IMG/VR virus record: IMGVR_UViG_3300047321_000238
Coordinates: 48,297-112,296 of that record
Source of the DNA: a virus
DNA: 64,000 nucleotides
Reading direction: 5' to 3' (one strand)
Shown piece by piece: positions 528-63,154 of the stretch (the first letter of the stretch is position 1; each line of letters starts with the position of its first letter). The position numbers and the translations under genes were made by a program. The notes beneath the pieces are model-generated. The model was not told the origin of the DNA and did no database searches. It was given only the letters and a program-made list of their open reading frames with translations.

Positions 528-1097
528 TTAGTTATACATTATATTGTATGTCTCTATGCCTGCTAGGAAGAAATGTACATGAGTAGGAAAAGTAGAAGTT
601 ACTACATTAAGCATCTCATCATTAGTAGAATCATTTGTGTTATAATCATCAAAGAACACTTCTGGATTCATTCTAAATCCTAATAAGTTTTGTGAGTTGT
701 TATTATAGAAGTATATAATTGTACCAAAATTAAATTCGATACTATATCTATTATGTCTAACAACTTGTCCCATAAGATCTGAACGATTTAATAGTTCTAT
801 CATTGCTTCTTTCATATAACGACATTGATTATTTGTTCTACTTATAATAAGCTTAGTGTTATGTGTTTGATTTAAGAATATGCTTTGATATACTTTTAAG
901 AGCAAGGCAGTAGATGTACCACTTTGTCTTGGTTGAGCCGCATACATTGTTTGTGAATTACTAGCAGTCTCAGCTATCAAAACATCTAATTGATAATCAT
1001 TTAAATAATACCCACATAAACGTCTTAGGTTTTCCCTTCTTCTGTTATATCTATATTCCTCAGTTTGCATATCTTGTACTAATTTTAATATCTCCAT
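528..1097 (-). CDS. hypothetical protein (189 aa from second ATG; N-terminus MEILKLVQD)
   Basis: Track ORF 528..1118. The internal ATG at 1097 is preceded by GGAGGA, so it is the likelier start. Contains AAQPRQSGTST, a degenerate P-loop-like string. Confidence 0.5.
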   Translation of the reverse strand: MEILKLVQDMQTEEYRYNRRRENLRRLCGYYLNDYQLDVLIAETASNSQTMYAAQPRQSGTSTALLLKVYQSIFLNQTHNTKLIISRTNNQCRYMKEAMIELLNRSDLMGQVVRHNRYSIEFNFGTIIYFYNNNSQNLLGFRMNPEVFFDDYNTNDSTNDEMLNVVTSTFPTHVHFFLAGIETYNIMYN

Positions 1098-11900: not shown

Positions 11901-13946
11901 GATTATTTCTTAAACCCAATAGATTCAGTTGGTATCATGGCAACAAACTTCTATAATAATGCTAAAATACTTATGGCATTAAAATCAATTAACACTGAAA
12001 TCACTAAAGAAATGAAACAATTCATAGTTCAAGGAATGAGAACAATGTTTTCTTGTAGTGGTTTAAAGAAGTATTCTTCTCCAATCAGAAAGAACAATGA
12101 CGGAACAAAATTTAACTACAACGATAGAAATAAAGTTGTTCTATGCAAAGATGTTTGTCACAAAATAATCAAAACATTTATCAACTCTAAAGGAGATTTT
12201 GCAGATTGTATTCAATTCTTAATTGATGTATGTATTTGTAGTAGATATCCAGCTGAAACTTCTATTGATAGTGCTAAGAAAATGTATAAAGTTATAAACA
12301 TGTTTGCATTATCTGGTTGTATTAAAGCTATGGGTTGTAAAAATGCTGTTAAATTCTTAAACTTTGATCCATATATGTTAGATGACCAAGGTAACTCTAT
12401 TGAAGAAGTAGAAACTACAAAAGCATTCACTAACATTATTGACATCTTTAATGCAGCTCAACCAAAAAATGCTCTACAATATTCAACAAACAATTTCTTT
12501 GGATTAAAATTAATAAAAGAAGAAATGTCATGTGTTGGTTGGGAAGATGCTGATAAGGCTATGTTAGCTTTCAATACAGAGAAAAAAGTAGCAGGTATTA
12601 AAGATCCTACTTATCTATTAAAAGAAAGACTAATGAACTTTGCTAATTCAGTTATAGTATTTGCAGCTAAAGAATTAGAAGCATTTGTTAAATCAGATGA
12701 AGCTAATGCTATCAGAAAAGAATTCAAAGGTTTCTACAATTCAGAAGATAATTATTTCAGAGTTGATAAAGTAGTATCTAACATCGTTGGTACTTATATC
12801 ACATTAACTGAATCAATCAAAGCTTCAGAAAATGATGAAATAGATGATATAACTGCAAAGAAATATCTTAAGACAAATGCATTACAAGCTCTAATGAACA
12901 CAGCTAAACTTTCATTTAAAACAGCTAGAAAACCAGTATCTGATGAAGAAATTGGAGCAGGTGTGTTCTATTATATGATTACTTCTTTTGAAAAAGAAAA
13001 AGACAATGTATGTACTTCAGTTAACTCTAAGATTCTTGATATCTTCCAAAAAGAGATATTAGCATTCTTAAAATCTAAAGGATATGATATGCTTGCTGCT
13101 GAAGAAATATTATATGCTGTTAATCCTGTAACTAACAGACAAGTTAAATTAAATACAACAGAAGGATTAACATGTTCTGCATATAATGGTCATGGTACAA
13201 TTGAATTAGAAGATGGTTCAATCTATTTATTAACTCTAAAGAATAAGAAAGCATCTTTTGATAATGGTACTATTTCTATAGTAGATGATAAGTATGTTGT
13301 TGTTCAACAAAGAAAAACTTTAGAAGAAAATATACAATCAGGATTCTACTTTGGTGCTAAAATGGAAAAAGGAATATTCAACAAAGCTAATCTTCTAATG
13401 CAAGATATTAAAAAGACTACTGGTGATTACAATGAATACAAAGCAGCATTAGCAGAAATAAATCCTAATAACATTTTAGCTGAGACACAATATGATGAAA
13501 TTCTTTTCAGAACAAGAAGAGAAATGGACGAAAGAGGAAAATCATATACAGCTAATCTTTTAATTGGTATGAAAGATGATCAAGAATGTTTAATAGCTGA
13601 GTTATACCTTAATACAATCGTTGCTCAATTATTACAAACTGCTGAGTTATCTGAAAGCAATGTAAGATTATTCATGACTGAAAATAGTTGTACTGTTAAC
13701 ATTATTGAAGACTCTCTATTAGCTGAAGTTGAATCAGTTAGCACTCCTGACACTATAAGTGATTCATTTGGATTAGATGACTTAGAAGGATTCAGTAACT
13801 CAATAATAGATTATTCTTGTTATGATGTTACTCCAGTTCAAGAAAACTATGATGAAAAACAATTCGTTGCAATTACAACAAACTACGATATTCCTCAAGT
13901 TGACATGTGCAATGACGAAAACTATTTAAATGGTTTAACTCAATAA
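8928..13946 (+). CDS. giant protein, 1672 aa, with a DFDID (DxDxD) motif; candidate two-barrel RNA polymerase-like enzyme
   Basis: Single uninterrupted ORF, track start TTG at 8928 (alternative ATGs at 8943 and 9004). Motif HDGMDFDIDAMQ resembles the beta-prime NADFDGDQM Mg-binding loop. Direct repeat NEGMDV[QK]MVN near the N-terminus. Confidence 0.8.
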   Translation: MNLGTMSDRDNGVQIKIYDEKDGYKMINTNTLTNGTTTTNTNEGMDVQMVNINVTNVAKIVGVSNEEVVALAIRLGLEVSTSGKKINNVISTAIVVEAVNDLIAKDEVAVTNIVNNNEGMDVKMVNKIKEEIMEMVYSEMNKEIAKQEIRDEYLNRVATVAAIVDESNKKYKRNTLSKVELVDYVVANNIEVNDKELRALYSQLNAARDKEAKSELVHKIIDQMNEGKFTYKMYATANKYKHLLSEDDTITFELALDVALNKASMKNYKNLLAVKRWTKDITVALLRRVVCYTGNQYETEVAPQMFSSLIRACDVTVKDVADSKMTLNGYTTDELLLFSFDKDVLKLTGNNDREVLAKKDYLAKVFYIIAGLSEQKVYIVERKSGIADVYTNINKIKLNEGEVIKQYEFLGITPSGLRSGTMTLAITKEIHADGTVVERDRRVEIMDKASDNSFSINFIVGANENGQAIFKDCESVLDAFKEMSRMMLCATSSKVLGKLDSYVVLDNLSFGAGYNAKDTNSPAKMGEENFVDCQDTTDGLGLISNDMLKENLQAMNIPCSIKDLLGMTFQARGGGLKIAAMSRSKEAIRLEAKASLSRGASVLRAVFKGQEVKAKDLTDEMLDNMQGLFDGNGMKLIDHNAEIELVMLKKAYSSDSKLSDVVNIIMMVNDEQATTALLSSKIKSQILDKLKDIGINVDYNAETDEVISVKCDLKNLKRINNDSQTVEWMFRSLPETMIALAPGVQKTNFNSLLKGLANLINELNVEVNCEYTVVQSDPAVRFGVRIIKEDEVFCPSLIEVNKVSGVRHPVSNLFAVSTFKTLTLKTILKRIDKLNVSLEVKNMLFEFYKGVEGYAIIPASHYYMEKHDGMDFDIDAMQFFLDQEVVAILEKTSDIGTIIDRSIDEEMDCSIKESNDDHAIKAFYKDINKKDFHPIAYDVKVSEEKIAPVKALKGMVMPKKINVASTEDNHYKKNANGRYSLDFSSVAMMVLDYFLNPIDSVGIMATNFYNNAKILMALKSINTEITKEMKQFIVQGMRTMFSCSGLKKYSSPIRKNNDGTKFNYNDRNKVVLCKDVCHKIIKTFINSKGDFADCIQFLIDVCICSRYPAETSIDSAKKMYKVINMFALSGCIKAMGCKNAVKFLNFDPYMLDDQGNSIEEVETTKAFTNIIDIFNAAQPKNALQYSTNNFFGLKLIKEEMSCVGWEDADKAMLAFNTEKKVAGIKDPTYLLKERLMNFANSVIVFAAKELEAFVKSDEANAIRKEFKGFYNSEDNYFRVDKVVSNIVGTYITLTESIKASENDEIDDITAKKYLKTNALQALMNTAKLSFKTARKPVSDEEIGAGVFYYMITSFEKEKDNVCTSVNSKILDIFQKEILAFLKSKGYDMLAAEEILYAVNPVTNRQVKLNTTEGLTCSAYNGHGTIELEDGSIYLLTLKNKKASFDNGTISIVDDKYVVVQQRKTLEENIQSGFYFGAKMEKGIFNKANLLMQDIKKTTGDYNEYKAALAEINPNNILAETQYDEILFRTRREMDERGKSYTANLLIGMKDDQECLIAELYLNTIVAQLLQTAELSESNVRLFMTENSCTVNIIEDSLLAEVESVSTPDTISDSFGLDDLEGFSNSIIDYSCYDVTPVQENYDEKQFVAITTNYDIPQVDMCNDENYLNGLTQ

Positions 13947-18963: not shown

Positions 18964-19028
18964 GATTAAAATAGCTATTGGTAATCTACTTAATCTAATA
19001 TATAAATAATAAAATCCTATATATAAAT

Positions 19029-19065
19029 AAGCTTCGCAGTTTTAATCATGCGTATTATTTGTATA
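19029..19065 (+). promoter_or_regulatory. conserved intergenic motif copy e
   Basis: AAGCTTCGCAGTTTTAATCATGCGTATTATTTGTATA, immediately after gene 18727..18963. Confidence 0.4.
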
Positions 19066-19511
19066 TAGGTTGGACCCTTAATCCATGAAAAGACGATTGG
19101 AGCATCTACGTATGTTGGGTATCGCAAAGTTTTCATTAATCCATCCCGTTCCTTATAGTATTATGCAGGATTTAGAATTCATTCTTGCATTCCTACTATA
19201 GGGAATACCCCTAAAAAGACTCAATCTTGCAAGAAAAAGAAAACCAACTTTCAGAATTACTATTATTGTGGAATAGATTATAATATATGCAAATATATTT
19301 TTAAGCTATCTTAACACAATTATGGTTAATTTTTTTCAGAGTTGGACACTAGTGTAATATATATAACACCAATTAACAGCTAACGCAGTTATGGAAATAA
19401 CACTTTGATATAGCTTAAAGTATATTTGCTGTTAATACACAATTCGTACTTACGAGTGCCGTAGATGCATATGCGACATAAAGTTAAGATGGATTTGTGC
19501 TTCCGAGTGCG

Positions 19512-19693
19512 AGCGTTAGCGAGCACGTATAATTAAATAGCGTTAGCGTCAATTATATAATAGCGTTAGCGTCAAAATTAAATAAAGCGTTAGCGTAGAT
19601 TTATAAATAGATATAATCTTCTATAGTATACCCATACTATTATGAAGTATATCGTCCTACAATTCCATTCAGTGACAGTTATAGCGTTAGCGT
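19512..19693 (+). repeat. iteron-like array: 5 direct copies of AGCGTTAGCG(T/A) spaced 13-26 bp apart, with a more distant fifth copy
   Basis: Copies at 19512, 19539, 19562, 19586 and 19683, embedded in AT-rich DNA inside a 1.1-kb ORF-free region (18964..20055). Confidence 0.5.
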
Positions 19694-20055
19694 TTAATAA
19701 CAAGCGTAGAATCGATTGTATCATCTATTAAGAGTAGCCATGTGTATACATACTACTAAACTTTAATAGATGCAACGTTGAACACGTAGTGCGAAACACA
19801 ATAAAATTATAATAATTTCTCTATACCTACCTAGCAGAATGTAAGTGATGTGGTAGTAGAGGATTAGGAGTCATATCTCCGTTTTAAAGAAATGGCACTC
19901 GTAGACCTGAACCAAGACGGTTTTGGGACGTAATCGGTGCTTTCACGTTATAATGGATATAAGCGTAGTGAGTAGTCTAAAAACGAACGGATTACTATTA
20001 CAGTAGTATATATACTTATATACACACATGGAATAAAAATAAAGGAGATTATAAT

Positions 20056-20303: not shown

Positions 20304-20636
20304 ATGGAAGTATTAAAGTATATTAATGATACGTTAGTATCATATACATTAGCTGAACTATATGATAATAGAATAGGAATATCTGTAAGTAACGTAGAAG
20401 AGTTTATAGACATAATCGATAAATTAGATGCAACAGGTTTAGTGTATATGCCTACCGATGTAAAACGAGATAAGGTAGCATTGTACAATAGAGGTACAAG
20501 TAAAAATAGTTGTATATTAATAGAAAGAAGACCTGACCTAGGTAAATGTGAATATATATTAAGGTATTATTCAGAAGACTATGTAACTATGTATGCTGGC
20601 ACTATAAAGAAGTATAGTGAGGTGACATTAGTATAA
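20304..20636 (+). CDS. MELLKYIN-leader family small protein (MEVLKYIND)
   Basis: Conserved N-terminus. AAAGGA RBS. Tandem with the following family members. Confidence 0.65.
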   Translation: MEVLKYINDTLVSYTLAELYDNRIGISVSNVEEFIDIIDKLDATGLVYMPTDVKRDKVALYNRGTSKNSCILIERRPDLGKCEYILRYYSEDYVTMYAGTIKKYSEVTLV

Positions 20637-20956
20637 TGGAGTTGTTAAAGCATATTAATGATATGGCAAATACGTATACTATAAGTAAGCTGTTAAATAC
20701 AAACGCTATAGTACAGTGTGATAGTAAAGAAGAGTTTATGCAGTTAATATATAAGATAAACTGTACATCGTATCTACATACAACCCTTAGTGGTAGTACA
20801 TGGGATATTTATAATAACCAGGATAGATATAATGGAAGTATGGCAATATACTTTAACAGTAGACATCTAGAGTTTTGTTACGTAGATTATTATAAAACAT
20901 ATAGACGTAAGAACCCTAAGTATAAGTATAGTGAAGTAAATATAGTAACTATATAG
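20636..20956 (+). CDS. MELLKYIN-leader family small protein (MELLKHIND)
   Basis: Conserved N-terminus. TAATG overlap with the upstream gene. Confidence 0.65.
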   Translation: MELLKHINDMANTYTISKLLNTNAIVQCDSKEEFMQLIYKINCTSYLHTTLSGSTWDIYNNQDRYNGSMAIYFNSRHLEFCYVDYYKTYRRKNPKYKYSEVNIVTI

Positions 20957-20965
20957 AGTATGCAG

Positions 20966-20996
20966 AGTTTTTCTTCTGCACGCGAACATATGTTTA
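20966..20996 (+). promoter_or_regulatory. palindrome-containing intergenic element copy 1 (GTTTTTCTTCTGCACGCGAACATATGTTTAT)
   Basis: Contains the perfect palindrome AAACATATGTTT. Repeats at 23149 and 23498. Confidence 0.4.
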
Positions 20997-21023
20997 TTAT
21001 ATGAAAGGAGATTAAGCAAGTCT

Positions 21024-21371
21024 ATGAGTATAGAGTTATTAGATTATATAAATAAGAATAGTAAAAAGTCTTATACTATACAACAGATGATAGATGATAA
21101 GATAGCAATTCAAGTATGTAGTAGAGAAGAGTTGCAAAATCTTATAGATATAAGAAGTAGTCATGGTTGTATTGGGTGTACAGTAGAATCATGGGATACG
21201 TATGTAATAAAATATAACAAAAAGAGATATAATGGTCGGATGTGTTTAGCATTTCAAAGACCAGGATTTCTTGATTTCTGTGATACAGGATATTATCTAA
21301 ACCAAGGATATACTATAGTGCCTTATACAAGTCTAGTTATAATAGATAGTGATAAGGTGGTGTTAATATAA
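21024..21371 (+). CDS. MELLKYIN-leader family small protein (MSIELLDYINK)
   Basis: Family N-terminus shifted by 2 aa. C-terminal Y-L-N-Q-G-Y-T-I motif shared with other members. Confidence 0.6.
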   Translation: MSIELLDYINKNSKKSYTIQQMIDDKIAIQVCSREELQNLIDIRSSHGCIGCTVESWDTYVIKYNKKRYNGRMCLAFQRPGFLDFCDTGYYLNQGYTIVPYTSLVIIDSDKVVLI

Positions 21372-21688
21372 TGGAAGTATTAAGTCATATTAATAATATA
21401 CAAAGGTTTAGTATGTCAGACTTTATAGATAAAGGATATGTAATAAAGGTATGTCATAGAGCTGGACTAGAAGCTATAGTAGAGTATTTAGATAATCATG
21501 GTGTAGAAGTTAACGATGATATACGTGGAGCTGATGATAGAAGATGTGAATACTTATGTTTAAGACTAGGAGGATGGACAGATAAGAGTGGTAACATAAC
21601 AGGTTATTGTGCATGGCAAGCAAACTATGAACACTATAAGAGTAGAGGATGTACTATGTACGATTATGATGAGGTGGTGTTAGTATAA
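21371..21688 (+). CDS. MELLKYIN-leader family small protein (MEVLSHINN)
   Basis: Conserved N-terminus. TAATG overlap with the upstream gene. Confidence 0.65.
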   Translation: MEVLSHINNIQRFSMSDFIDKGYVIKVCHRAGLEAIVEYLDNHGVEVNDDIRGADDRRCEYLCLRLGGWTDKSGNITGYCAWQANYEHYKSRGCTMYDYDEVVLV

Positions 21689-21689
21689 T

Positions 21690-22022
21690 ATGGAGTTATT
21701 AAAAGAAGTAAATGAATTTAATAAGTATAGAATACGAGATATAATACGTAATAGCATGGATATATTAATACATACACCTAAGGAAGAAGACTTAATTATA
21801 TTATATAACAAGTTAATTGAATTAGGATATATAATAAGTGATCACATGTTGCATATATATAGTTCGTATAAAGAAGAGACATGTATAAGATTCTATAAGT
21901 ATACTAGTCAAAGTAGTGTAGCAAATGAATTAGGAATGAGTTATGCTGATAAACCATGGTATATCGAGAATGAAAAACAAATGAAGATAATAAACATGGG
22001 GGACATAGTATGGAAGTATTAA
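21690..22022 (+). CDS. MELLKYIN-leader family small protein (MELLKEVNE)
   Basis: Conserved N-terminus. Confidence 0.6.
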   Translation: MELLKEVNEFNKYRIRDIIRNSMDILIHTPKEEDLIILYNKLIELGYIISDHMLHIYSSYKEETCIRFYKYTSQSSVANELGMSYADKPWYIENEKQMKIINMGDIVWKY

Positions 22023-22324
22023 GATATATTAATGATGTAGTATATGGTATGTATACTATAGAAGAATTAATAAATAAGAAGATAGCAGTACATGTACCTA
22101 CAAAAGAAAAATTTAATAATATGCAAGATATGCTTATATTATTATATGGCAATAAAATAAAAACATTATCTTATGATAAAATAGGTAGGTATGCAAAGTT
22201 AATGTGTATTAACGTAGAGAGTAGTACAGGACCATATCAATATGACATGGTTATAAGTTATTGCGATAAACAATGGTATCTGGATAATGGTTATACTGTT
22301 ATAAGTATGGATAGTATAAGATGA
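22010..22324 (+). CDS. MELLKYIN-leader family small protein (MEVLRYIND), CDKQWYLDNGY C-terminus
   Basis: Conserved N- and C-terminal motifs. Confidence 0.65.
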   Translation: MEVLRYINDVVYGMYTIEELINKKIAVHVPTKEKFNNMQDMLILLYGNKIKTLSYDKIGRYAKLMCINVESSTGPYQYDMVISYCDKQWYLDNGYTVISMDSIR

Positions 22325-22512
22325 GTAAAGAATTATTAAGTTATATAATAGTAATGTTTATTACGGGTTTCTTAATAGGAATAATGGGAAACCTAATGGG
22401 CTCACCAAGTAAAAATAATATATTTATAGATGCTATATTATTTGGAATATTCATGATATTTTATCCATTTTATATTATTATATATGAAATAAGAAACAAT
22501 AGAAAGAAGTGA
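22321..22512 (+). CDS. small membrane protein with related N-terminus (MSKELLSYI), 63 aa
   Basis: Two predicted TM helices. ATGA overlap with the upstream gene. Confidence 0.5.
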   Translation: MSKELLSYIIVMFITGFLIGIMGNLMGSPSKNNIFIDAILFGIFMIFYPFYIIIYEIRNNRKK

Positions 22513-22519
22513 AAATATC

Positions 22520-22831
22520 ATGGAGATATTAAGTTATATAAATGATATAGCCTTTAACACGTATACTATAAAACAGTTAATAGGTAATAAGATAGCAGTG
22601 CATGTACCCACGCTTAAAGAATTCAAAGATATGCAAGAGATAGTTAAAGCACACAATAAAGATGTATATATAATGGATGATAGTATATATAATTGTATGA
22701 AAGAGGAGACATGTCTTAATATAGAAAATTGGAGCGGAGATTGTATATGTGATATACAAATAGAATATTGCGATAAACAATGGTATATAGATAATGGTTA
22801 TAAGATTATAAGTATGGAGGATATAAGATGA
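22520..22831 (+). CDS. MELLKYIN-leader family small protein (MEILSYIND), CDKQWYIDNGY C-terminus
   Basis: Conserved N- and C-terminal motifs. Confidence 0.65.
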   Translation: MEILSYINDIAFNTYTIKQLIGNKIAVHVPTLKEFKDMQEIVKAHNKDVYIMDDSIYNCMKEETCLNIENWSGDCICDIQIEYCDKQWYIDNGYKIISMEDIR

Positions 22832-23142
22832 GTGTAGAACTATTAAATTATATAAACAAAGAAATGTTTAAGATTATAATAACAGTAGATGAACTAGTTA
22901 ATAATGGAGTAGTTATACATGTAAATAATAGAGAAGAACAGGAAGAGTTTTTCACCGCAGTATGTAATGTGGATATACATGTACCTGCTGATACTAGAAT
23001 ACATTCATATAAAACACATGGAGATAAGCTGTTACACTTAATACAAAATCATAATGGTTTATATAGAGTAATGTATGGCACTAAGATGTCATTAGGTAAG
23101 TATAGAGTATTAGAGTATAAAGATATAAGTATAGTTAAGTAA
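22828..23142 (+). CDS. MELLKYIN-leader family small protein (MSVELLNYINK)
   Basis: Family N-terminus shifted by 2 aa. ATGA overlap with the upstream gene. Confidence 0.6.
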   Translation: MSVELLNYINKEMFKIIITVDELVNNGVVIHVNNREEQEEFFTAVCNVDIHVPADTRIHSYKTHGDKLLHLIQNHNGLYRVMYGTKMSLGKYRVLEYKDISIVK

Positions 23143-23148
23143 ACAACG

Positions 23149-23170
23149 GTTTTTTCTTTGCACGCGTAAT
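23149..23170 (+). promoter_or_regulatory. intergenic element copy 2 (GTTTTTTCTTTGCACGCGTAAT)
   Basis: Shares TTTTTCTTTGCACGCG with copies 1 and 3. The palindrome half is missing. Confidence 0.35.
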
Positions 23171-23187
23171 AAGAAGGAGTGAACGTA

Positions 23188-23487
23188 GTGATTGAGTTAT
23201 TAAAGTATATTAACAATGACTTCGTAAAAGAAGAAACTGTTGAAGCTATTAATAAAAGAAATAAGTTATTCAACGAACATGTATTAACATTAAGAAAAGA
23301 TATAGAAGAACTTAATGATAGAATAGAACTAGATAATAAAAGAAAAAGTAAAGCATTATTTATTATAGTATCTTCTACTATAGTTAATCTTATAATACAA
23401 TTAATATCTATAAGTCTTTATATTAAAGTATCATCAGCTATAGTATATGTATTGCTATTACAATTAGTTATATGGAAGAAAGATTAA
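23188..23487 (+). CDS. MELLKYIN-leader family protein with membrane C-terminus (V/MIELLKYINND)
   Basis: GTG start 8 nt after AAGGAG. The track ORF starts 9 nt earlier, inside the RBS. C-terminal hydrophobic helices. Confidence 0.55.
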   Translation: MIELLKYINNDFVKEETVEAINKRNKLFNEHVLTLRKDIEELNDRIELDNKRKSKALFIIVSSTIVNLIIQLISISLYIKVSSAIVYVLLLQLVIWKKD

Positions 23488-23497
23488 GTAGAAAAAG

Positions 23498-23528
23498 GTT
23501 TTTCTTTGCACGCAAACATATGTTTATA
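23498..23528 (+). promoter_or_regulatory. palindrome-containing intergenic element copy 3 (GGTTTTTCTTTGCACGCAAACATATGTTTAT)
   Basis: Near-identical to copy 1 and includes AAACATATGTTT. Confidence 0.4.
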
Positions 23529-23548
23529 TTAAGAAGGAGTGATAAGTC

Positions 23549-24016
23549 ATGGAAGAATTGTTAGAATTATTGGGAGATAGAAGAATACCTAAGTATGAGG
23601 AGACGACAGCATTTAATAACATACCTATTACAGATGAGTATGTAAAACATCAAATTATAAGTGAAGATAAAAAAGAAGTGAAGGCAATATTAAAAAGAAT
23701 AAGGACTAGCGGATTTCATTGCAATAGTACGAACAATTTAATAACTGTCATATTAGAGAACAAAGCTCTCTTAGATAAAATTAGTTTAGTAAAGGATGGT
23801 AGTTATTTAAATACAAAGATACTTTTAAAACGTAATAGCAAACCATATATACTTATATATAGTGGAATTAAAACTGTATTAGGTGATAAAGTATTCGATT
23901 TGAAATTTGATTATAGTGAAATAGAAATGTTAAATCTTATTACTGATAGAAGTGAAAGAGTATATATTAATATAAGAGATTATATAGATAGAGATAGATA
24001 TAGATGGAACTATTAA
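23549..24016 (+). CDS. hypothetical protein, 155 aa (N-terminus MEELLELL)
   Basis: Track ORF with AAGGAGTGA RBS. Loosely related leader. Confidence 0.55.
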   Translation: MEELLELLGDRRIPKYEETTAFNNIPITDEYVKHQIISEDKKEVKAILKRIRTSGFHCNSTNNLITVILENKALLDKISLVKDGSYLNTKILLKRNSKPYILIYSGIKTVLGDKVFDLKFDYSEIEMLNLITDRSERVYINIRDYIDRDRYRWNY

Positions 24017-24333
24017 ATTATATAAACAACGTGTTAAATAAGTATAACTTTGATTATCTATATGATAATAAAGTAGCAATAAGAGTACCAACAGCAGACG
24101 ATTATTATATATTAGAGAAGATGATAAATGATTATTGTAAGAGAAAATATATATCAGTAAGATTATTACCATTCTTAAGGAATAGTAATTATATAAAAAT
24201 ACATGCTACATGTATTAATATAGGACCAGAAACTATAACAAATCATTATGATATAAATATAAACTATTGTGATCAAGAATATTATATACAACAAGGATAT
24301 ACTATAGTTAATATATCTGACTGTTGTATATAG
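24004..24333 (+). CDS. MELLKYIN-leader family small protein (MELLNYINN), CDQEYYIQQGY C-terminus
   Basis: Conserved N- and C-terminal motifs. Confidence 0.65.
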   Translation: MELLNYINNVLNKYNFDYLYDNKVAIRVPTADDYYILEKMINDYCKRKYISVRLLPFLRNSNYIKIHATCINIGPETITNHYDININYCDQEYYIQQGYTIVNISDCCI

Positions 24334-24345
24334 GAGAGTAGTATA

Positions 24346-24558
24346 ATGGAACTATTAAAGTATATAAACAATTATAAACACAAGATGATGTGTGGCAGTA
24401 CTAGTAGACAAAAAAGAGGATGTGACAATATCGATATAAAAGCATGTTGTATAACATGTAATAAGAGAGACGATTGTTACTTTGAATGTGCAGGCTCACA
24501 GACAGAAAGACATTATCGAAATATAGATGAGCCATGTGATAAAGGAGTAGTACTATGA
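24346..24558 (+). CDS. MELLKYIN-leader family, short Cys-rich form (10 Cys in 70 aa)
   Basis: MELLKYINN leader followed by a CxxxxxCC...C..C...C Cys-rich body. Confidence 0.6.
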   Translation: MELLKYINNYKHKMMCGSTSRQKRGCDNIDIKACCITCNKRDDCYFECAGSQTERHYRNIDEPCDKGVVL

Positions 24559-24686
24559 TGGAATTATTACAAGCAGTTAATAAAATGAATATGTATACTT
24601 TAACAGATGTAGTCTATGCATTTACAAGAGGAAAGAAAATAGCAATAGAAATAAAAGATATTATAATAAAGAAGGAGTATTTATGA
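24555..24686 (+). CDS. MELLKYIN-leader family mini-protein, 43 aa (MMELLQAVNK)
   Basis: Not in track (under 60 aa). ATGA overlaps on both sides. Related leader. Confidence 0.4.
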   Translation: MMELLQAVNKMNMYTLTDVVYAFTRGKKIAIEIKDIIIKKEYL

Positions 24687-25051
24687 CCGAACTATTAAGT
24701 ATGATTAATAATTATTCTATAGGATATAGTTTAAACGATTTATATAATAAACATATAATAATTAGAATATTAAACAAAAAAGATTTATGTGATTTCATTG
24801 AAATTTCTAATTATAATAATACAGTTAGAACCTTTAATGCAGAAAAAGTATGGAATAAATATGTAGAACCACTTAATAATTGTAATAAAATTATATGCAT
24901 AGAATTAGAAGTAAATGACGAAGAAGATAATTATGATTTTATGTTTACATTTGGAAGTATAAGTTATTATACTGATCCAATACTACATCGTGAAAATAAA
25001 TATGAAATAGTAGATTATCATAAAGATATAATAAATAATTGGGAGATATAA
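24683..25051 (+). CDS. MELLKYIN-leader family small protein (MTELLSMINN)
   Basis: Conserved N-terminus. Confidence 0.6.
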   Translation: MTELLSMINNYSIGYSLNDLYNKHIIIRILNKKDLCDFIEISNYNNTVRTFNAEKVWNKYVEPLNNCNKIICIELEVNDEEDNYDFMFTFGSISYYTDPILHRENKYEIVDYHKDIINNWEI

Positions 25052-25054
25052 TTT

Positions 25055-25402
25055 ATGATTGAATTATTAAGTTTTGTTAATGATGAAACAAACATAAAAG
25101 AAACAGTATATGTAGACGACATAGCTGGAAACAAAATAACATTAGAATTTTCTACTAAAGAAAGTTATATGATATTTTGTAAAGCTATGGACGAAACATA
25201 TGATACTTATACTGAATATACAAAGAATGATGCATGGGAAGACTATATAGAAGATGAAGAGCAGAACAAAGATTTTAAAGGTAAGCTTGGTTTGAATCTA
25301 CATGATAATAAAAAAGGTTGGAACTATTGTGAAATTGATTGGTATAAAGATAATGGCTATAAAGTATATAAGTACGATGATATTATATTAAAGTACAATT
25401 AA
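25055..25402 (+). CDS. MELLKYIN-leader family small protein (MIELLSFVND), CEIDWYKDNGY C-terminus
   Basis: Conserved N- and C-terminal motifs. Confidence 0.65.
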   Translation: MIELLSFVNDETNIKETVYVDDIAGNKITLEFSTKESYMIFCKAMDETYDTYTEYTKNDAWEDYIEDEEQNKDFKGKLGLNLHDNKKGWNYCEIDWYKDNGYKVYKYDDIILKYN

Positions 25403-25419
25403 AAAGGAAATGAAGAATA

Positions 25420-25746
25420 ATGAGGGAATTATTAAAACATATACAAGAGAATCAATATAAAATAGAAGATATTATAAAAGATAATGTAGCGTTGTATATT
25501 GATAATAGAAAAGATTTAGATACTATAATAGAAGTAGCAAATAGACATAATATATTTATTGGGCCATTTATAAGAACATCATTAACGGATTCATATTGTA
25601 AAAAAGGAATCTTTATAAAGATAATACACATTAAAGAAAATGATTATTATGTGAAAGGATATAAATATAGATTAGGATGGAATTTCGATGATAATGATAA
25701 ATCACTCTTAACTGTATATAGTAGAGAGGATTATATATTAGTATAA
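25420..25746 (+). CDS. MELLKYIN-leader family small protein (MRELLKHIQE)
   Basis: Conserved N-terminus. Confidence 0.6.
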   Translation: MRELLKHIQENQYKIEDIIKDNVALYIDNRKDLDTIIEVANRHNIFIGPFIRTSLTDSYCKKGIFIKIIHIKENDYYVKGYKYRLGWNFDDNDKSLLTVYSREDYILV

Positions 25747-25758
25747 GGAGAGATTAAT

Positions 25759-26070
25759 ATGGCCGAGCTATTAAAATATGTAAATGAAAATATTAAAGAC
25801 AAATATACCGTAAAGATGATTATAGACAAAAGATTAGTAGTTAATGTAAAAACTAAAGAAGCGTTTAATGATATGCAGGATAAAATATGGGATTATAATC
25901 ATAAAGTATGCTTTATAGATAATGATGTTTATTCCATACACAAATCACAAACATGCATTAAAGTAGAAAGAATAAATACATCGGAATATGATTTAAATAT
26001 AGAATTTTGTGACAAACAATGGTATATAGATGAAGGCTATCAAATAATTGATATAGGAAAAGTAATATAA
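25759..26070 (+). CDS. MELLKYIN-leader family small protein (MAELLKYVNE), CDKQWYIDEGY C-terminus
   Basis: Conserved N- and C-terminal motifs. Confidence 0.65.
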   Translation: MAELLKYVNENIKDKYTVKMIIDKRLVVNVKTKEAFNDMQDKIWDYNHKVCFIDNDVYSIHKSQTCIKVERINTSEYDLNIEFCDKQWYIDEGYQIIDIGKVI

Positions 26071-26249
26071 TGGAGCTATTAAAATACATTAATACTCACA
26101 TATATAAAAGAAAATGTAAGTATGGATGTAGATATAAAGAAGATGAAGATGAACATATATGTTGTCATGATTGTGATCGTATAGATATATGTGACGCAGT
26201 CTGTTTCTCTTTAGATGAAAAGGAATGTGACTTCACTATTAAGGAATAA
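26070..26249 (+). CDS. MELLKYIN-leader family, short Cys-rich form, 59 aa
   Basis: Not in track. TAATG overlap with the upstream gene. MELLKYINTHIYKRKCKYGCRYK...CCHDCDRIDICDAVC. Confidence 0.5.
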   Translation: MELLKYINTHIYKRKCKYGCRYKEDEDEHICCHDCDRIDICDAVCFSLDEKECDFTIKE

Positions 26250-26794: not shown

Positions 26795-27421
26795 ATGGAA
26801 ATATTAAAACATATAAATGAATTAAAAACTAAAGGAATAGCATATATATGTTACGATACTGGAGGTAGTGGAGAAGATGGTAGAAGATTATACGCACGCA
26901 ATATATATGATTATTATAAAGAATTATACTTCGATGTAGTAGTATTAAGCTATAGTACTCACGCAAAATATAATAATATAGATAATATTCTACCACAAGG
27001 AACTGGTGGCACTTATATGTCATCGCCATTAACTTTATTAATGCAAGATGCAGAGAGAGTTAAAAACGATAAAGAACTATGTCATTATGCTTACAACTTC
27101 AATCCTAATAATATAATTGTATTAGTAGGGGATGGAGATAACTGGAGTGAAGATAATGATAGATTCTGTAGATGTATAGAAGAGATAACAAAAACTAATA
27201 GTGTTGTATATCATGAAATATTAGGAGGTTCACATCATGATAATACAATGTACAAGCGGTTAAAAGCTAAAAGATATTCAAAGGTTCATCTCTATAAAGT
27301 AGAGAAAGAACAAGATATATTTGGCAATAAGAAAAAACAAATAAAAGGTGCCGATTATTATACTGCTATAACTGAAGATTTAGTAGATAGTATATTTGAT
27401 TGGGATGTATCATATGAATAA
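26795..27421 (+). CDS. MELLKYIN-leader family, long member, 208 aa (MEILKHINE)
   Basis: Conserved N-terminus on a larger body that is unrelated to the other members. Confidence 0.6.
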   Translation: MEILKHINELKTKGIAYICYDTGGSGEDGRRLYARNIYDYYKELYFDVVVLSYSTHAKYNNIDNILPQGTGGTYMSSPLTLLMQDAERVKNDKELCHYAYNFNPNNIIVLVGDGDNWSEDNDRFCRCIEEITKTNSVVYHEILGGSHHDNTMYKRLKAKRYSKVHLYKVEKEQDIFGNKKKQIKGADYYTAITEDLVDSIFDWDVSYE

Positions 27422-27758: not shown

Positions 27759-27950
27759 ATGGCTGATGCAACTTTAATAAATACACCACCAACAGGAACA
27801 CCACCGCCAGGACCAACAGGTATGCCACCAAATCCTGCACAAGGACTAGGAATGGGATCATGTTTAAATTCTCATATGAATGGTTATTTTATAAATTCAT
27901 TTGGCAGTGGACATAAAACTACTGCAAAGAAAAAGAAGAAGAAAAAATAA
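27759..27950 (+). CDS. hypothetical Pro/Gly-rich protein with poly-Lys tail, 63 aa
   Basis: AAAGGAG RBS. PPTGTPPPGPTGMPPNP followed by a KKKKKKK tail. Confidence 0.4.
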   Translation: MADATLINTPPTGTPPPGPTGMPPNPAQGLGMGSCLNSHMNGYFINSFGSGHKTTAKKKKKKK

Positions 27951-27962
27951 GGAGGATTTTAT

Positions 27963-28109
27963 ATGGATTCAAATATGTACAATTACTTATATGGAATTGG
28001 AGATAGAACCTCCTTATCTAGTCAAAATAAGAAAAGTACTAAAAAATCTACTAAGAAAACGGCAGTTAAAAAAACAACAGCTAAGAAGACTGCAACTAAA
28101 AAGAAATAA
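27963..28109 (+). CDS. small basic KKT-repeat protein, 48 aa (histone-H1-tail-like composition)
   Basis: AAGGAGG RBS 7 nt upstream. STKKSTKKTAVKKTTAKKTATKKK. Preferred over the track ORF 27901..28119, which is in another frame. Confidence 0.45.
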   Translation: MDSNMYNYLYGIGDRTSLSSQNKKSTKKSTKKTAVKKTTAKKTATKKK

Positions 28110-28572: not shown

Positions 28573-28836
28573 ATGGAGATATTAAATCATATCAATAATG
28601 CTATGAGTATAAACTTTCATGAAGATTCATTGCTTATAGCTAATATATTAGTAAACTACACGCTTGAATATCAAGATTATAGTGAGAATAAAAAAGCTGC
28701 AGACTATATGGTAAAGGGAGTAAGTTATGTTATGGGAGATAGTCATTGGTCAATCAAAAATGTATATAACTTAGCAGAAACCGTTAAAGGATTGTATGTA
28801 GCAGGAGTTCCACTACATCAATATAGGAAGGGATAA
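28573..28836 (+). CDS. MELLKYIN-leader family small protein (MEILNHINN)
   Basis: Conserved N-terminus. TAATATG junction with the upstream gene. Confidence 0.6.
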   Translation: MEILNHINNAMSINFHEDSLLIANILVNYTLEYQDYSENKKAADYMVKGVSYVMGDSHWSIKNVYNLAETVKGLYVAGVPLHQYRKG

Positions 28837-30341: not shown

Positions 30342-30536
30342 ATGAAGAAGATACAAGCTTTTAATCAAATGATAAATGGCAATAGAATTAGACACGAATA
30401 TTTCGGATCATCAGAGTATTTGTATATGGAGTATGGTATAATATATTCCGAAGAAGGATACAACTTCGAAGACGCATGGGATAATAGAAATGGCCCAGAA
30501 TGGGAAGAAGGTTGGAGCTTATATGGAGCTGCTTAG
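30342..30536 (+). CDS. hypothetical protein, 64 aa
   Basis: Track ORF. Trp-rich C-terminus. Confidence 0.4.
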   Translation: MKKIQAFNQMINGNRIRHEYFGSSEYLYMEYGIIYSEEGYNFEDAWDNRNGPEWEEGWSLYGAA

Positions 30537-30765
30537 TTTTATTAATAAATTAAGTGAAAGATATACTGAATATAGTATGGTATGTTCAAGAATAGATAAT
30601 CTTGCTGACAATAAATACTATCCATTATTATTAGTTAGTGATAAAGATAATATAAAAGAAGCAATTAAAAAATGGTTTAATATTTATTGTTATGTAGATG
30701 AAACTCAAATACTACAAGCTATAGATATTTATCTTGAAGTAAGAAAAGAAATAACAGGAGATTAA
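30523..30765 (+). CDS. MELLKYIN-leader family small protein (MELLSFINK)
   Basis: Internal ATG of track ORF 30490. Chosen because it restores the family leader. GGAG 6 nt upstream. Confidence 0.5.
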   Translation: MELLSFINKLSERYTEYSMVCSRIDNLADNKYYPLLLVSDKDNIKEAIKKWFNIYCYVDETQILQAIDIYLEVRKEITGD

Positions 30766-31255: not shown

Positions 31256-31531
31256 ATGAAGACAGTATTAAAAATCGTTGCTGTATGTACTTTAGGTATG
31301 TTTGATAGTTTTTTAGCACGAACTTATGAAGCTATACAAACCTTAATTAACAGTCGTTCAGCTGTACAAGCTTTAAAGAACTCCAATGAAGGATATGTAG
31401 TAAGTCAAGTATTTCAATTTGATGGAACTGTATTCTATGGAGTAATGATATTAATAAATGTATTAATCCTTTATTTGATGTTTAGAACATCATTTAAAGT
31501 TAATAAAGATAAAAATGAAGAAACAAAATAA
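31256..31531 (+). CDS. small membrane protein, 91 aa
   Basis: Track ORF with GGGAGGAAAG RBS. Confidence 0.5.
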   Translation: MKTVLKIVAVCTLGMFDSFLARTYEAIQTLINSRSAVQALKNSNEGYVVSQVFQFDGTVFYGVMILINVLILYLMFRTSFKVNKDKNEETK

Positions 31532-31556
31532 TAAATATGATGGGGGAAAAATAATT

Positions 31557-32525
31557 ATGAAAAACGTAAATAAAAAAGTGTTAGCAGCAATCTTACTAGT
31601 AGGAATATCTTCAACAGGACTTATGGCATGTAAGCCATATAACACTCCTGAATTTGTAGATATATCACCATCTCAAACAGCATTTGCTATTCCATTAAAG
31701 GGAAATGGAGCAGATCAAGTTAAGTTAGATTCAGAAGAAGCTGTTAAAGCAAACTTAGTTACATCTAAAAGAGTACCAATCAGTAAAGAATGGTTACAAA
31801 CAGGTAGAGCATTTATATTTGAAGAAGGTAAATGGATTGCAAATGAAGTAGTTATAGTAGTTGAGCGTAAGCCAGAAACTAGAGCTTGGACAGAAGCATC
31901 AGGAACTGGAACTTCTGTAACAAATGAAGGAATAGAAGCAGAGACTAAAGGCTCAATAGCTTTTATAGCTGGCATGAATTGTACAGCTAGTATTCAAGAG
32001 TCTGATGCTGCTAAGTATTTATTTAACTATAATGAAAAACCTTTAAAAGATGTAATGGATACAGAAATTAGAGCAGCAGTAGAATCTAAGTTTGGCGAAG
32101 AAATAGCTAAACGTGATTTAGAAGTAGTTCTTGTTGAGAAAGAACAAATTATGACTGCAGTTAGAACTTATGTTGATGACATGTTTTCTAAGAAAGGAAT
32201 CACTATAAACCAATTAGGTTTAAAAGGTGAGTTCACATATAAAGATCCTAAAGTTCAAGCATCTTTAAATGCTAAATTTACAGCAGCTAAAGACCAAGAA
32301 TCTCAAACAATTGTAAATGAAACAAATAAAGCTAAAGCAATTGCTGATGCAGAAGTTATTAGAACTCAAGCATCTACAATGTCTGACACTATTAAACTTA
32401 AACAAGCAGAAGCAGCAATCATTGAAGCAAATGCTAAATTAGAAATGGCTAAATCTATAGGTAACATGAAAGATGTAAAAGTATTAGGAAACAATCCTTT
32501 GTTTGGATCAGACATGTTAAAATAA
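31557..32525 (+). CDS. lipoprotein with SPFH/band-7-like C-terminal domain
   Basis: Signal peptide with lipobox LMAC. C-terminal Ala/Glu-rich coiled region (AKAIADAEVIRTQA...AEAAIIEANAK) typical of SPFH proteins. Start taken at the ATG after GGGGGAAAA. Confidence 0.45.
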   Translation: MKNVNKKVLAAILLVGISSTGLMACKPYNTPEFVDISPSQTAFAIPLKGNGADQVKLDSEEAVKANLVTSKRVPISKEWLQTGRAFIFEEGKWIANEVVIVVERKPETRAWTEASGTGTSVTNEGIEAETKGSIAFIAGMNCTASIQESDAAKYLFNYNEKPLKDVMDTEIRAAVESKFGEEIAKRDLEVVLVEKEQIMTAVRTYVDDMFSKKGITINQLGLKGEFTYKDPKVQASLNAKFTAAKDQESQTIVNETNKAKAIADAEVIRTQASTMSDTIKLKQAEAAIIEANAKLEMAKSIGNMKDVKVLGNNPLFGSDMLK

Positions 32526-33084: not shown

Positions 33085-33299
33085 TGAGATGGAAAAAGAT
33101 AATCAAGAAATTTCCTAAGATAGGAGATACAAGAGTAATTAGTTATTTCGCATTACTTTTAGTAGAAATAGATAAAGAAGTAAGATGGCTTGAAAAAGTA
33201 ACAGTAAAACAAATAAGAGCATATAAGTACTATGGTCCTTGTGGTCAATACGGTCCACATTGGAAGAATATAAAATTTATAGATGAAGAGGTGAAATAA
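33084..33299 (+). CDS. hypothetical protein, 71 aa
   Basis: Track ORF. Overlapping start and stop with neighbours. Confidence 0.45.
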   Translation: MRWKKIIKKFPKIGDTRVISYFALLLVEIDKEVRWLEKVTVKQIRAYKYYGPCGQYGPHWKNIKFIDEEVK

Positions 33300-38190: not shown

Positions 38191-38409
38191 ATGGATTTGT
38201 ATATAAACATAATAAAAGCTCAGTTAGATAACATAATACAATCTAATAAACATTATGTCGCAGCTAAGGGCGATAAAGGTAAGAAACAGTCAGCTTTAGT
38301 ACTGGCTACTAATATATGCAAACTAGAAAAAATTATAGAAGAATCATTAAAAGAGATTGAAAAAGCAGGAGTAGATGTAGATAGAGTAAGAATGAGGTTA
38401 GATTTATGA
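38191..38409 (+). CDS. hypothetical protein, 72 aa
   Basis: Track ORF with AAGGGTGA RBS. Confidence 0.45.
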   Translation: MDLYINIIKAQLDNIIQSNKHYVAAKGDKGKKQSALVLATNICKLEKIIEESLKEIEKAGVDVDRVRMRLDL

Positions 38410-39035: not shown

Positions 39036-39047
39036 GAGGAAAAAATT

Positions 39048-39584: not shown

Positions 39585-39600
39585 GAGAGGATGATGTAAA

Positions 39601-40329: not shown

Positions 40330-40359
40330 TTGTAACAAATATGAGGAGGATGTAATAAA

Positions 40360-42308: not shown

Positions 42309-42650
42309 ATGGAATTATTAAAGTATATCAATAATCTAAATAACATTAGTAAACCTCGAACAGTTATAAAAATTAAAAGAGGAGTAATAAATAACTTACC
42401 TAATAGATTAGAACCAAATGAAATATTTTATGTAACAGATGCCCATATATTAGGAGTAGCTGATAGCACAGGAAATCCTAATTTATTAGTAGCAGTCGAA
42501 GAACTACCTTATATAGAAGATTTTCCTGTATATCCCGATAGAAATAAATTATACTATTCAATATTGAATGAGCAAGTATATTATTATGATTATCAGACTC
42601 AGAGATATGAACCTGTTAGATTAAATACATTTAATTTAGATATTAGATAA
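42309..42650 (+). CDS. MELLKYIN-leader family small protein (MELLKYINNL), isolated copy
   Basis: Perfect family N-terminus 16 kb away from the main array. Confidence 0.6.
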   Translation: MELLKYINNLNNISKPRTVIKIKRGVINNLPNRLEPNEIFYVTDAHILGVADSTGNPNLLVAVEELPYIEDFPVYPDRNKLYYSILNEQVYYYDYQTQRYEPVRLNTFNLDIR

Positions 42651-48171: not shown

Positions 48172-48549
48172 TTAAATAATAATATTAGGCGATAAGAACT
48201 GACGAACTTATCAATTGGATGTCCTAGTGATTGATTTCACGGCATTGTTATAGTAATACATTTATGTAGTTGTTTTAGGGTTAGGAATGGAACAATTAAA
48301 GCTATAATGCTGATATAGATATGAAGACACAATTCAGAATATACTTAGCGTATATTTCATATGAAAACCTTTTTTGCTGATTATGCATTAAGGGTTTTTA
48401 TATTCATCTGTGTCCACAGGAATTCCTTAGCATATATTCTGAAGAGCAACACGCAAGCAATATGACTTATAAATTTAGATATAAGCTATTAAATAAACGT
48501 TTAATGGTTGATATGTAAATTTTATATTTTATAAGGGAGGATTATTAAG

Positions 48550-52025: not shown

Positions 52026-52328
52026 ATGAATAAAAAGAAAAAATTTAGAGAAAACATAATAGTAAGAGCACAGGATTGTGGCAAACATATAACAGAGACA
52101 GGCGATACTTTAAGAACAACAGCGAAATTATTTGGTTGTTCAAAATCAACAGTACACAAAGACATAAATGATAGATTATTATTCATCAATAAAAGATTGT
52201 ATAATAAAGCTAGAAAGGTACTAGAAAAGAATTTAGCTGAGAGAAATTTAAGAGGAGGATTAGCTACTAAGAATAAATATGCTAATTCAGGCAAAGACAA
52301 TAACATATTAGATAAAAGCAAAAGCTAA
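52026..52328 (+). CDS. spoIIID: SpoIIID-like sporulation transcriptional regulator
   Basis: AKLFGCSKSTVHKDINDRL and RNLRGGLATKNKY match B. subtilis SpoIIID (AKEFGVSKSTVHKDLTERL...RHLRGGEATKLKY) along the whole length. Start after AGGAGTG. Confidence 0.75.
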   Translation: MNKKKKFRENIIVRAQDCGKHITETGDTLRTTAKLFGCSKSTVHKDINDRLLFINKRLYNKARKVLEKNLAERNLRGGLATKNKYANSGKDNNILDKSKS

Positions 52329-52654
52329 TGGAACTATTGGCATACGTAAGGAAAATTTGGTTAAGAAAACATTCTAAAGGAAAGTGGGAGACTAAAGATG
52401 GATCAGAACAGTATGTTGAAGAACTTACTGATGACCATCTAATGAGGATCCCACATTTCATTTGGAAACAATATCGTAGCTATTCAAAAACAATGATTTC
52501 AGATGTGATCAAAGAAGAAATAGAAGAAAGAAATATGTATATTGACTATGATAACGAATGTAAAGTAAGACGTAATCATCCAGCTCTTAAAGCAATTTCC
52601 TCTAAATCTAATGTCGCTAAAAAGAAAACACATAATAAAATATTTTATAAATAA
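52328..52654 (+). CDS. hypothetical protein, 108 aa
   Basis: Track ORF. TAATG overlap with the upstream gene. Confidence 0.5.
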   Translation: MELLAYVRKIWLRKHSKGKWETKDGSEQYVEELTDDHLMRIPHFIWKQYRSYSKTMISDVIKEEIEERNMYIDYDNECKVRRNHPALKAISSKSNVAKKKTHNKIFYK

Positions 52655-60177: not shown

Positions 60178-60198
60178 ATAATCTTGAGGGGGATTAAA

Positions 60199-62866: not shown

Positions 62867-63154
62867 ATGGATGTATTAAAGCATATAAATCGAATTAGTA
62901 GTAAAAAAATTGCTGTAGTAATGTTCAGTCGTGGTACTATGTGTTATTTTAAAACTACATTAGATGATCTAGAAGAAAATGATATGGTCTTAGTTCACAC
63001 TAAGCAGGGATATGAAATAGCACATTTTTATGAATATACAACCTATGAATTTGATGTTGAAAAAGCTATTCATTGGATAGTACAAAAAATAGATACAACA
63101 GAATATGAAGAAAATAAAAAATTATTTGAGGAGGATAACAATGTTAATAACTAG
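62867..63154 (+). CDS. MELLKYIN-leader family small protein (MDVLKHINR), distal copy
   Basis: Family N-terminus. About 36 kb from the main array. Confidence 0.5.
   Translation: MDVLKHINRISSKKIAVVMFSRGTMCYFKTTLDDLEENDMVLVHTKQGYEIAHFYEYTTYEFDVEKAIHWIVQKIDTTEYEENKKLFEEDNNVNN

Follow-up and report, generated by a model that had tools for sequence, protein, structure and literature searches.

An eight-residue N-terminal peptide shared by some 25 small genes in an uncultured jumbo phage, a probable protein-level recognition tag

We analyzed a 64,000-nucleotide stretch of the IMG/VR virus record IMGVR_UViG_3300047321_000238 (positions 48,297 to 112,296, called the window in the following), which carries a tandem array of small genes at 20304 to 26249. 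An eight-residue peptide, M-E-L-L-K-Y-I-N, heads approximately 25 small genes of at least eight unrelated protein families. Its conservation acts on the protein, with purifying selection on the amino acids, and the peptide lies outside the folded domain, is portable and can be gained or lost independently of the body behind it. It probably represents a recognition tag that is read at the protein level by one common partner. More tentatively, we regard it as a docking helix that would meet this partner in the cytoplasm of the infected cell. The window is part of a 247,883-bp JGI contig (also present as Logan SRR26076558, 108 kb) with a G+C content of approximately 29%, of which about 84 kb were analyzed, and its source is an uncultured jumbo phage of a lineage without cultured relative.

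Occurrence and conservation level of the N-terminal peptide

The tag consensus M(x0-4)-E-[LIV]-L-x-[YHF]-[IV]-[NQR] was located at the start of 24-26 genes of the window, with one to four extra residues in front of the tag in some members. Searching the six-frame translation of the 64-kb window with the regular expression [ED][LVI]L..[IV][NQ] gave 25 matches. Twenty-three of them were positioned at most four residues from the start codon of an open reading frame (ORF) of at least 41 amino acids, and only two, at 13104 and 38757, were internal. The DNA pattern ATGGARNTNTTAARNYAYATHAAY was found 11 times in the window versus 0.00 expected from 100 dinucleotide shuffles. A position-specific scoring matrix (PSSM), trained exclusively on leaders from other phages, gave 25 window sites with scores of 10 bits or more, including 22 at gene starts, and revealed one member beyond those listed in the initial annotation (52328..52654, plus strand, MELLAYVR, an orphan of 108 aa, 11.0 bits). 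Several genes have a stop codon directly before their ATG, which leaves no doubt that the peptide is N-terminal. Most tagged genes possess a Shine-Dalgarno site 6-10 nucleotides 5' of the gene. All ORFs claimed by the initial annotation were present. Of the tandem block described there, 17 strict members and a looser one at 22321 were retained, while 23549 (MEELLELLG) fell outside the pattern. The copies reported outside the array, at 26795, 28573, 30523, 42309, 62867 and on the minus strand at 528..1097, were borne out, and the shared C-terminal motif YCDKQWYIDNGY, two Cys-rich forms, the membrane tails and a member of 208 aa were all found.

The leader DNA of the tagged genes was aligned on the Glu codon and the information content was determined for each position. 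It followed the codon structure, with variable third positions. The leader Glu was encoded by GAA and GAG at 13:9, Ile by ATT, ATA and ATC at 10:11:2, and the first position of the codon after Glu was occupied by all four bases, yielding L, V or I. The sole conserved feature 5' of the start codon was a purine-rich ribosome-binding site. In ortholog pairs between the window and its closest relative, contig L153, the peptide was kept with one to four of seven leader codons synonymously changed; 26070 and L153:9805-9993 both encode ELLKYIN with four of the seven codons different. The N-terminal tag of the initial annotation is consequently a protein-level feature, since synonymous codons vary while orthologs keep the peptide. 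Its proposed alternative, a conserved nucleotide element, was abandoned in view of the codon-structured conservation, the synonymous variation and the ribosome-binding site as only upstream feature. For the same reasons a DNA shuffling or regulatory cassette of the type of T4 PeSL or RegA operators was rejected. A classical secretion signal, also considered there, was discarded because the tag has no hydrophobic core: its eight residues include E, K/S/N and N, and neither the hydrophobic run nor the RR of a Sec, Tat or lipoprotein signal was present.

Family A and the tag as a separable add-on

After removal of the leader, blastp joined 12 of the approximately 105-aa proteins, and 22828 was added by alignment. 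These 13 full-length members and the 43-aa fragment 24555 make up 14 paralogs of one small alpha/beta domain, termed family A. The initial annotation had stated that the bodies behind the leader differ. This holds for the remaining tags, which head bodies unrelated to family A, but not for the 14 paralogs. Because these form one paralogous family, the apparent difference of the bodies is partly plain divergence. An exhaustive profile search of 1.84 billion cluster representatives gave 181 representatives for family A at E<=1e-3 and 24 at E<=1e-10, with similarity over the whole domain. The homologs often came from other lineages and occurred as single domains, in tandem or in multidomain proteins. 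The consensus of the body is KIAVHCxTxEE...Y.E.TCY. A widespread small domain was thus defined for which no Pfam model, no solved structure and, using the structure model of member 22520, no fold relative was found. PDB sequence searches were empty, and Pfam, PHROGs and NCBIfam provided a function for no tagged protein except 26795.

Among 150 listed homologs, approximately 50 were tagged and aligned from profile position 1. More than 90 were untagged, with an alignment starting at position ~10-15 and a protein start corresponding to the first helix of the domain (consensus x-I-E-D-I-V-N-K-K-IAVHC); a large number of these untagged homologs were tandem or multidomain proteins. As the untagged homologs exist as independent single-domain proteins, the tag is dispensable for the fold. 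In 31 diverged tagged family A proteins, the leader columns showed a mean pairwise identity of 57% compared to 21% elsewhere; E2 and L4 were the sole invariant columns, and position 7 was I or V. A variable spacer, 3-8 residues long, follows the conserved core of the tag. The AlphaFold2 model of 22520 reached a predicted local distance difference test score (pLDDT) of 88 and a predicted template modeling score of 0.79, and placed residues 2-12 of the leader in a helix with a pLDDT of 59. This lower value, compared to 88 overall, is consistent with a leader helix that does not pack on the domain.

Tag and body were separable outside family A as well. L155:13209-13430, from a more distant relative, is a tagless ortholog of the Cys-rich 24346, and 26795 has the tag immediately before the initial strand of its von Willebrand factor A (vWA) domain, where the homologs P0005 and P0006 have a domain of approximately 100 aa instead. 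The first helix itself was leader-like (>95th percentile) in 31% of the untagged family A homologs versus 5% of background 7-mers, and the start of P0153, MELSKIINKKIAIHC, is an example of such a tag-like first helix. Four family A homologs from other sources (P0070, P0072, P0093 and P0108) share the N-terminus MDI[VI][ED][GR][LF], perhaps a divergent form of the tag, or a parallel one, from a different phage lineage.

Tagged genes, related phages and genomic context

All genes of the array are encoded on the plus strand. The family A series opens with 20304..20636 (MEVLKYIN, 110 aa) and 20636..20956 (MELLKHIN, 106 aa), with orthologs at L153:7650-7991 (58% identity) and L153:8607-8933 (55% identity), respectively. 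It continues with 21024..21371 (MSIELLDYIN, 115 aa), 21371..21688 (MEVLSHIN, 105 aa), 21690..22022 (MELLKEVN, 110 aa) and 22010..22324 (MEVLRYIN, 104 aa), the latter with the C-terminal end YCDKQWYLDNGYTVISMDSIR. The modeled member is located at 22520..22831 (MEILSYIN, 103 aa) and is followed by the divergent member at 22828..23142 (MSVELLNYIN, 104 aa), which was P0024 in the profile search, and by 24004..24333 (MELLNYIN, 109 aa). The ORF of 43 aa at 24555..24686 (MMELLQAVN) looks like a truncated family A N-terminus. The series ends with 24683..25051 (MTELLSMIN, 122 aa), 25055..25402 (MIELLSFVN, 115 aa), 25420..25746 (MRELLKHIQ, 108 aa) and 25759..26070 (MAELLKYVN, 103 aa).

Four further bodies are interspersed with these genes. 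A protein of 63 aa at 22321..22512, with the looser leader MSKELLSYII (PSSM 12.0 bits), has two hydrophobic segments as read from the sequence. At 23179..23487, (M)IELLKYIN (PSSM 22.3 bits) heads a protein with a coiled-coil-like stretch behind the leader and hydrophobic residues in its C-terminal tail; according to the gene caller, this gene starts at 23188 (GTG). The two Cys-rich proteins at 24346..24558 (70 aa) and 26070..26249 (59 aa; ortholog L153:9805-9993) both start with MELLKYIN, share the motif CCxxCxxxDxCxxxC and constitute family B. Beyond the array, still on the plus strand, the 208-aa protein at 26795..27421 (MEILKHIN) is DUF444/vWA-like and matched Pfam PF04285 over residues 47-177 with 35.7 bits (cut-off 27). 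Aligned with P0004-P0006 it shows MIDAS-like DxGGS and GDGDNWSEDN motifs; its AlphaFold2 model was unusable (pLDDT 47). In the 327-aa protein P0006, a DUF444/vWA domain is fused with an untagged domain similar to family A (residues 16-73), and 26795 may therefore derive from such a protein by loss of the family A domain. The other plus-strand bodies are orphans of 87 aa (28573..28836, MEILNHIN, leader-bearing orthologs in L153 and L156), 80 aa (30523..30765, MELLSFIN, leader-bearing orthologs in L153 and L155), 113 aa (42309..42650, MELLKYIN, no homolog in phages or PDB) and 95 aa (62867..63154, MDVLKHIN), besides the one at 52328. On the minus strand, the 189-aa protein at 528..1097 (MEILKLVQ) has weak similarity to the ATPase of large terminase subunits (phrog_5989, E 1e-4) and a degenerate Walker A-like motif, PRQSGTST. 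It adjoins the packaging and head module, with the true terminase of 583 aa next to it in L151, the contig part to the left of the window.

Syntenic tagged arrays were detected in at least three related jumbo phages, all uncultured. The closest relative of the window phage is L153 (ENA ERZ15232962 NODE_1, a 137-kb contig); L155 (ENA ERZ18242522 NODE_22, 259 kb) is more distant, and L156 and L157 originate from the JGI samples 3300038985 and 3300038998. Relatives and window have a common gene order, in which RNase H is followed by a 273-aa gene and ~1 kb of non-coding DNA separates the latter from the array. In the stretches read, the number of tagged genes per relative varied (about 10, 11 and 6), and their bodies belonged to family A, the Cys-rich family, the 87-aa orphan and the 80-aa orphan. 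The tag is retained on at least five body families across four phages. Between window and L153 the flanking genes were 75-94% identical, the best family A orthologs only 55-58%, and most array genes had no orthologous counterpart. The array thus turns over faster than its surroundings, in agreement with the rapid diversification proposed in the initial annotation. Searches of GenBank phages by megablast and tblastn gave no match for the region, 22520, 26795, 42309 or the 1672-aa protein described below, and the latter had no relative in IMG/VR. The leader DNA pattern yielded 28 matches in IMG/VR, all single and chance-like, and in the scan of one metagenome there were single ones only among the matches listed. 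In GTDB genomes neither a relative of the 274-aa neighbor gene nor an array with two leaders was detected, and no prophage or host was found.

The head and packaging module lies left of the window on the opposite strand (L151) and comprises the large terminase, a Cpn10 homolog (the GroES-like co-chaperonin, L151 15323-15625), the portal and a 439-aa protein. By eye, the latter is a candidate HK97-type protease fused to a coiled-coil scaffold; its N-terminus MAIELQEYVG has no invariant L4 and was treated as a coincidental resemblance to the tag. The head-module proteins gave no match to the Pfam or PHROG families of gp21 or gp22. The array is part of a long block in which small and accessory genes are all oriented alike and opposite to the head module, a placement which suggests early or middle expression. 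The accessory genes encode an Apyc1-like metallo-beta-lactamase (MBL) hydrolase (33299-34075), a NAPRTase-family enzyme (49798-51228), a PnuC-like transporter of nicotinamide mononucleotide (56846-57535), a NadR-like AAA_28 protein (60184-61257), a NUDIX protein (61258-61836) and a Macro protein (62372-62824). The hydrolase belongs to phrog_392, and its orthologs match Pfam Anti-Pycsar_Apyc1. These six genes may counter host defense, and together they could represent a set for the salvage of nicotinamide adenine dinucleotide. Shortly downstream of the array a conserved SPFH/Band_7 gene is found at 31515-32525.

Directly 5' of the array, a conserved region at 18964..20055 (plus strand, ~1.1 kb, no gene called) corresponds to L153 6180-7300 and L155 8541-9700. 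Its identity to L153 is ~90% and it is clearly conserved in L155 as well, more so than the neighboring proteins, and its sole ORF is broken by an indel of one nucleotide. Five of the six AGCGTTAGCG boxes of the window (0.43 expected) are located here. For the block 19066-19262 a consensus fold with five compensatory pairs among three sequences was obtained, and no Rfam match was found for the region. The region likely controls the array operon; a regulatory function, an iteron cluster or a new non-coding RNA are all conceivable.

Further genes of the window were noted. The 1672-aa protein at 8928-13946 is conserved in the relatives (35% identity to L155) and had no Pfam, PHROG or PDB match. 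As it also has no internal repeats, it is not an obvious multi-site scaffold. Its GMDFDIDAMQ may resemble the DxDxD metal site found in two-barrel RNA polymerases (YonO, crAss-type). The 684-aa protein at 35368-37422 (phrog_1735, E 4e-258; ~60% identity to Bacillus Herelleviridae phage proteins) was found in 497 phage records from many hosts. The accessory block also includes an ABC transporter set at 38406-41928, which consists of a 209-aa ATPase, a nearby permease and a 522-aa fusion of an NMT1-type substrate-binding and an OmpA-like domain. A GGDEF-domain protein is encoded at 5099-5554, and two overlapping frames at 27759-28109 would encode low-complexity tails rich in Lys (…KKKKKKK and TKKSTKKTAVKKTTAKKTATKKK).

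Possible roles of the tag and comparison with known systems

The reading we tentatively prefer is as follows. M-E-[LIV]-L-x-[YHF]-[IV]-N would form the core of a short N-terminal amphipathic helix on many unrelated accessory proteins. One common partner would read this helix mainly via the invariant E2 and L4 and the hydrophobic position 7, and the tagged proteins would thereby be gathered at the same place or machine within the infected cell. The genomic context favors a cytoplasmic hub for early or accessory proteins, presumably of host takeover and anti-defense, and the tail-anchored proteins 22321 and 23179, with the tag on the cytoplasmic side, would tie it to the membrane. Since the tag resembles the first helix of the family A domain, this domain is a candidate for the receptor. 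A more far-reaching version would be a new phage protein-sorting system, in which an address helix and a dedicated receptor bring more than 25 accessory proteins, including membrane-anchored ones, to one intracellular structure; the receptor could then be the family A domain, to which the tag would bind as a donated copy of the domain's first helix, similar to cohesin and dockerin. We consider this version conceivable but doubtful.

We are aware of several points that weigh against a cytoplasmic docking helix. The common partner is putative, and to our knowledge no comparable hub has been described in phages. Early expression we infer from gene order and orientation alone: the promoter scan gave 132 sites versus 138 expected, and promoter and terminator scans did not differ from shuffled sequence. 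The tagged 528..1097 adjoins packaging genes. The resemblance of the tag to the first helix of the domain is modest, with a mean score 1.3 standard deviations above background. Finally, the tag codons are skewed, with TTA for L4 in 22 of 23 genes (66% genome-wide) and GAG for Glu in 9 of 22 (41% versus 15% genome-wide). Shared descent can explain this skew, which may reflect either such ancestry or a minor nucleotide-level effect.

The initial annotation had compared the array to the internal proteins IPI-III and Alt of T4 and had suggested a packaged and injected effector or anti-defense arsenal. In this case the tag would bind the prohead scaffold or core, and the tagged proteins would be co-injected. 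T4 provides the sole precedent known in phages for this architecture, namely a 10-19-residue N-terminal peptide on unrelated small proteins of hypervariable loci (PMC9026906; PMC3012670). Residues 4 and 7 carry the targeting in the T4 capsid targeting sequence (CTS), which fits the invariant L4 and the I or V at position 7. The family A array outpaces its flanks, as expected for arms-race genes, a jumbo capsid is roomy enough for cargo, and one tagged gene adjoins the terminase, portal and protease genes. While the architecture is thus alike, cleavage site, isoelectric point (pI), membrane members and gene placement do not fit. Only 4 of 26 proteins have L/I-x-E in the nine residues behind the tag, and no alternative site shows conservation; the position directly behind the tag is taken by D, N, K or E with no pattern. 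The median pI is 5.7, with a negative or zero net charge in 17 of 25 tagged proteins, compared to the T4 internal proteins described as basic (PMC9026906). Two tagged proteins have transmembrane segments, the head module gave no match to T4 gp21 or gp22, and its protease-scaffold candidate appears HK97-like by eye. The tagged genes are also placed among the accessory genes, whose orientation is opposite to that of the late structural genes. Membership in the T4 CTS family itself is not supported, and capsid targeting in general is possible yet rather doubtful. Because the testable T4-type features do not fit, cytoplasmic docking was ranked above it.

A degron or timer appears unlikely. Here, a host or phage protease or adaptor of the ClpXP, ClpCP or FtsH type would read the exposed helix and remove the accessory set together at a set stage. 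The helix is exposed with low model confidence, the mechanism would work on soluble and membrane-anchored proteins alike, and the SPFH/Band_7 gene is close by. E-L-L-K-Y may also loosely fit the N-terminal ClpX motif (polar-hydrophobic-hydrophobic-basic-hydrophobic); however, K is found at position 5 in less than half of the members. A strict invariance of E2 and L4 over long divergence would be unusual for a degron, and no protease or adaptor gene was identified nearby. We likewise give little credit to a start cassette acting in translation, in which the first eight codons or the nascent peptide would aid initiation or early elongation in coupled operons and be carried into new genes. The tagged genes are tightly packed, many of their junctions are TAATG stop-start overlaps, and the codon skew given above would fit. 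Nevertheless, the amino acids are kept while codons change, ~75 other genes of the same block have no tag, and the distance to the start codon is not fixed, as one to four residues may precede the tag.

Very unlikely is a historical remnant, with the helix being part of the family A fold, the other tagged genes chimeras with a family A 5' end and the tag functionless. Family A accounts for 14 of about 25 tagged genes, the tag resembles the first helix of the domain, and 26795 could be a deletion derivative of a family A-like and vWA fusion such as P0006. However, across three to four phages the Cys-rich, 87-aa and 80-aa families, too, show their highest conservation in the tag, which is unexpected for a functionless remnant, and the independent untagged homologs argue that the fold does not need it. 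A DNA or RNA element at the gene starts (recombination cassette, promoter or PeSL/RegA-type binding site) is hardly tenable: short nucleotide repeats do occur there (families D3, D6, D8 and D13), but the information content by codon position, the synonymous changes in orthologs and the lack of upstream conservation beyond the ribosome-binding site all contradict it.

If a common partner exists, one peptide would lead two dozen unrelated proteins to it, the second such phage system known after the T4 CTS and the first in a lineage with Shine-Dalgarno-type ribosome-binding sites, ~29% G+C and no cultured relative. In the literature no description of such a tag was found outside T4-type phages. 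Once located, the receptor would show the role of fast-evolving, uncharacterized small phage proteins. With the prohead as receptor, the tag would amount to a ready-made signal for loading cargo into a jumbo capsid; with a cytoplasmic hub, a new organizational level in host takeover would become visible.

Compared to known systems, the tag is most similar to the T4 CTS of IPI, IPII, IPIII and Alt, which is also a short, portable N-terminal peptide on unrelated small and fast-evolving accessory proteins of a large myovirus-type phage (PMC9026906; PMC3012670; PMC7411985), with key hydrophobic residues at positions 4 and 7 in both. It differs in sequence, in the missing L/I-x-E site, in the acidic character of the proteins, in that no T4-type core genes were detected, and in having ~25 members including membrane proteins versus four in T4. 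Propeptides of giant phages (SPN3US gp53, gp54 and gp47; phiKZ inner-body proteins) likewise belong to paralogous families of jumbo phages, and N-terminal prohead targeting was proposed for them (PMC7411985). However, they comprise 111-130 residues on large proteins with a defined cleavage motif, compared to an eight-residue core on proteins of 6-24 kDa here. Precursors of ribosomally synthesized and post-translationally modified peptides, e.g., prochlorosins, combine a conserved leader of 20-80 aa with a hypervariable core in many copies per genome. A conserved N-terminal leader before diversified parts is common to both, and two Cys-rich members are superficially precursor-like; this assignment was rejected in view of a leader of 8-12 aa, mostly folded bodies of 43-208 aa and no adjacent maturase; the single radical SAM gene, at a distance of 32 kb, is MoaA-like and scored well under all family cut-offs. 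Dockerins are longer (~70 residues) and the cargo-loading peptides of encapsulins are usually C-terminal, whereas the tag described here has eight residues and is N-terminal. The likeness to dockerin-cohesin and encapsulin systems lies in a short conserved module that a variety of cargo proteins have in common; in those systems it is read by one receptor.

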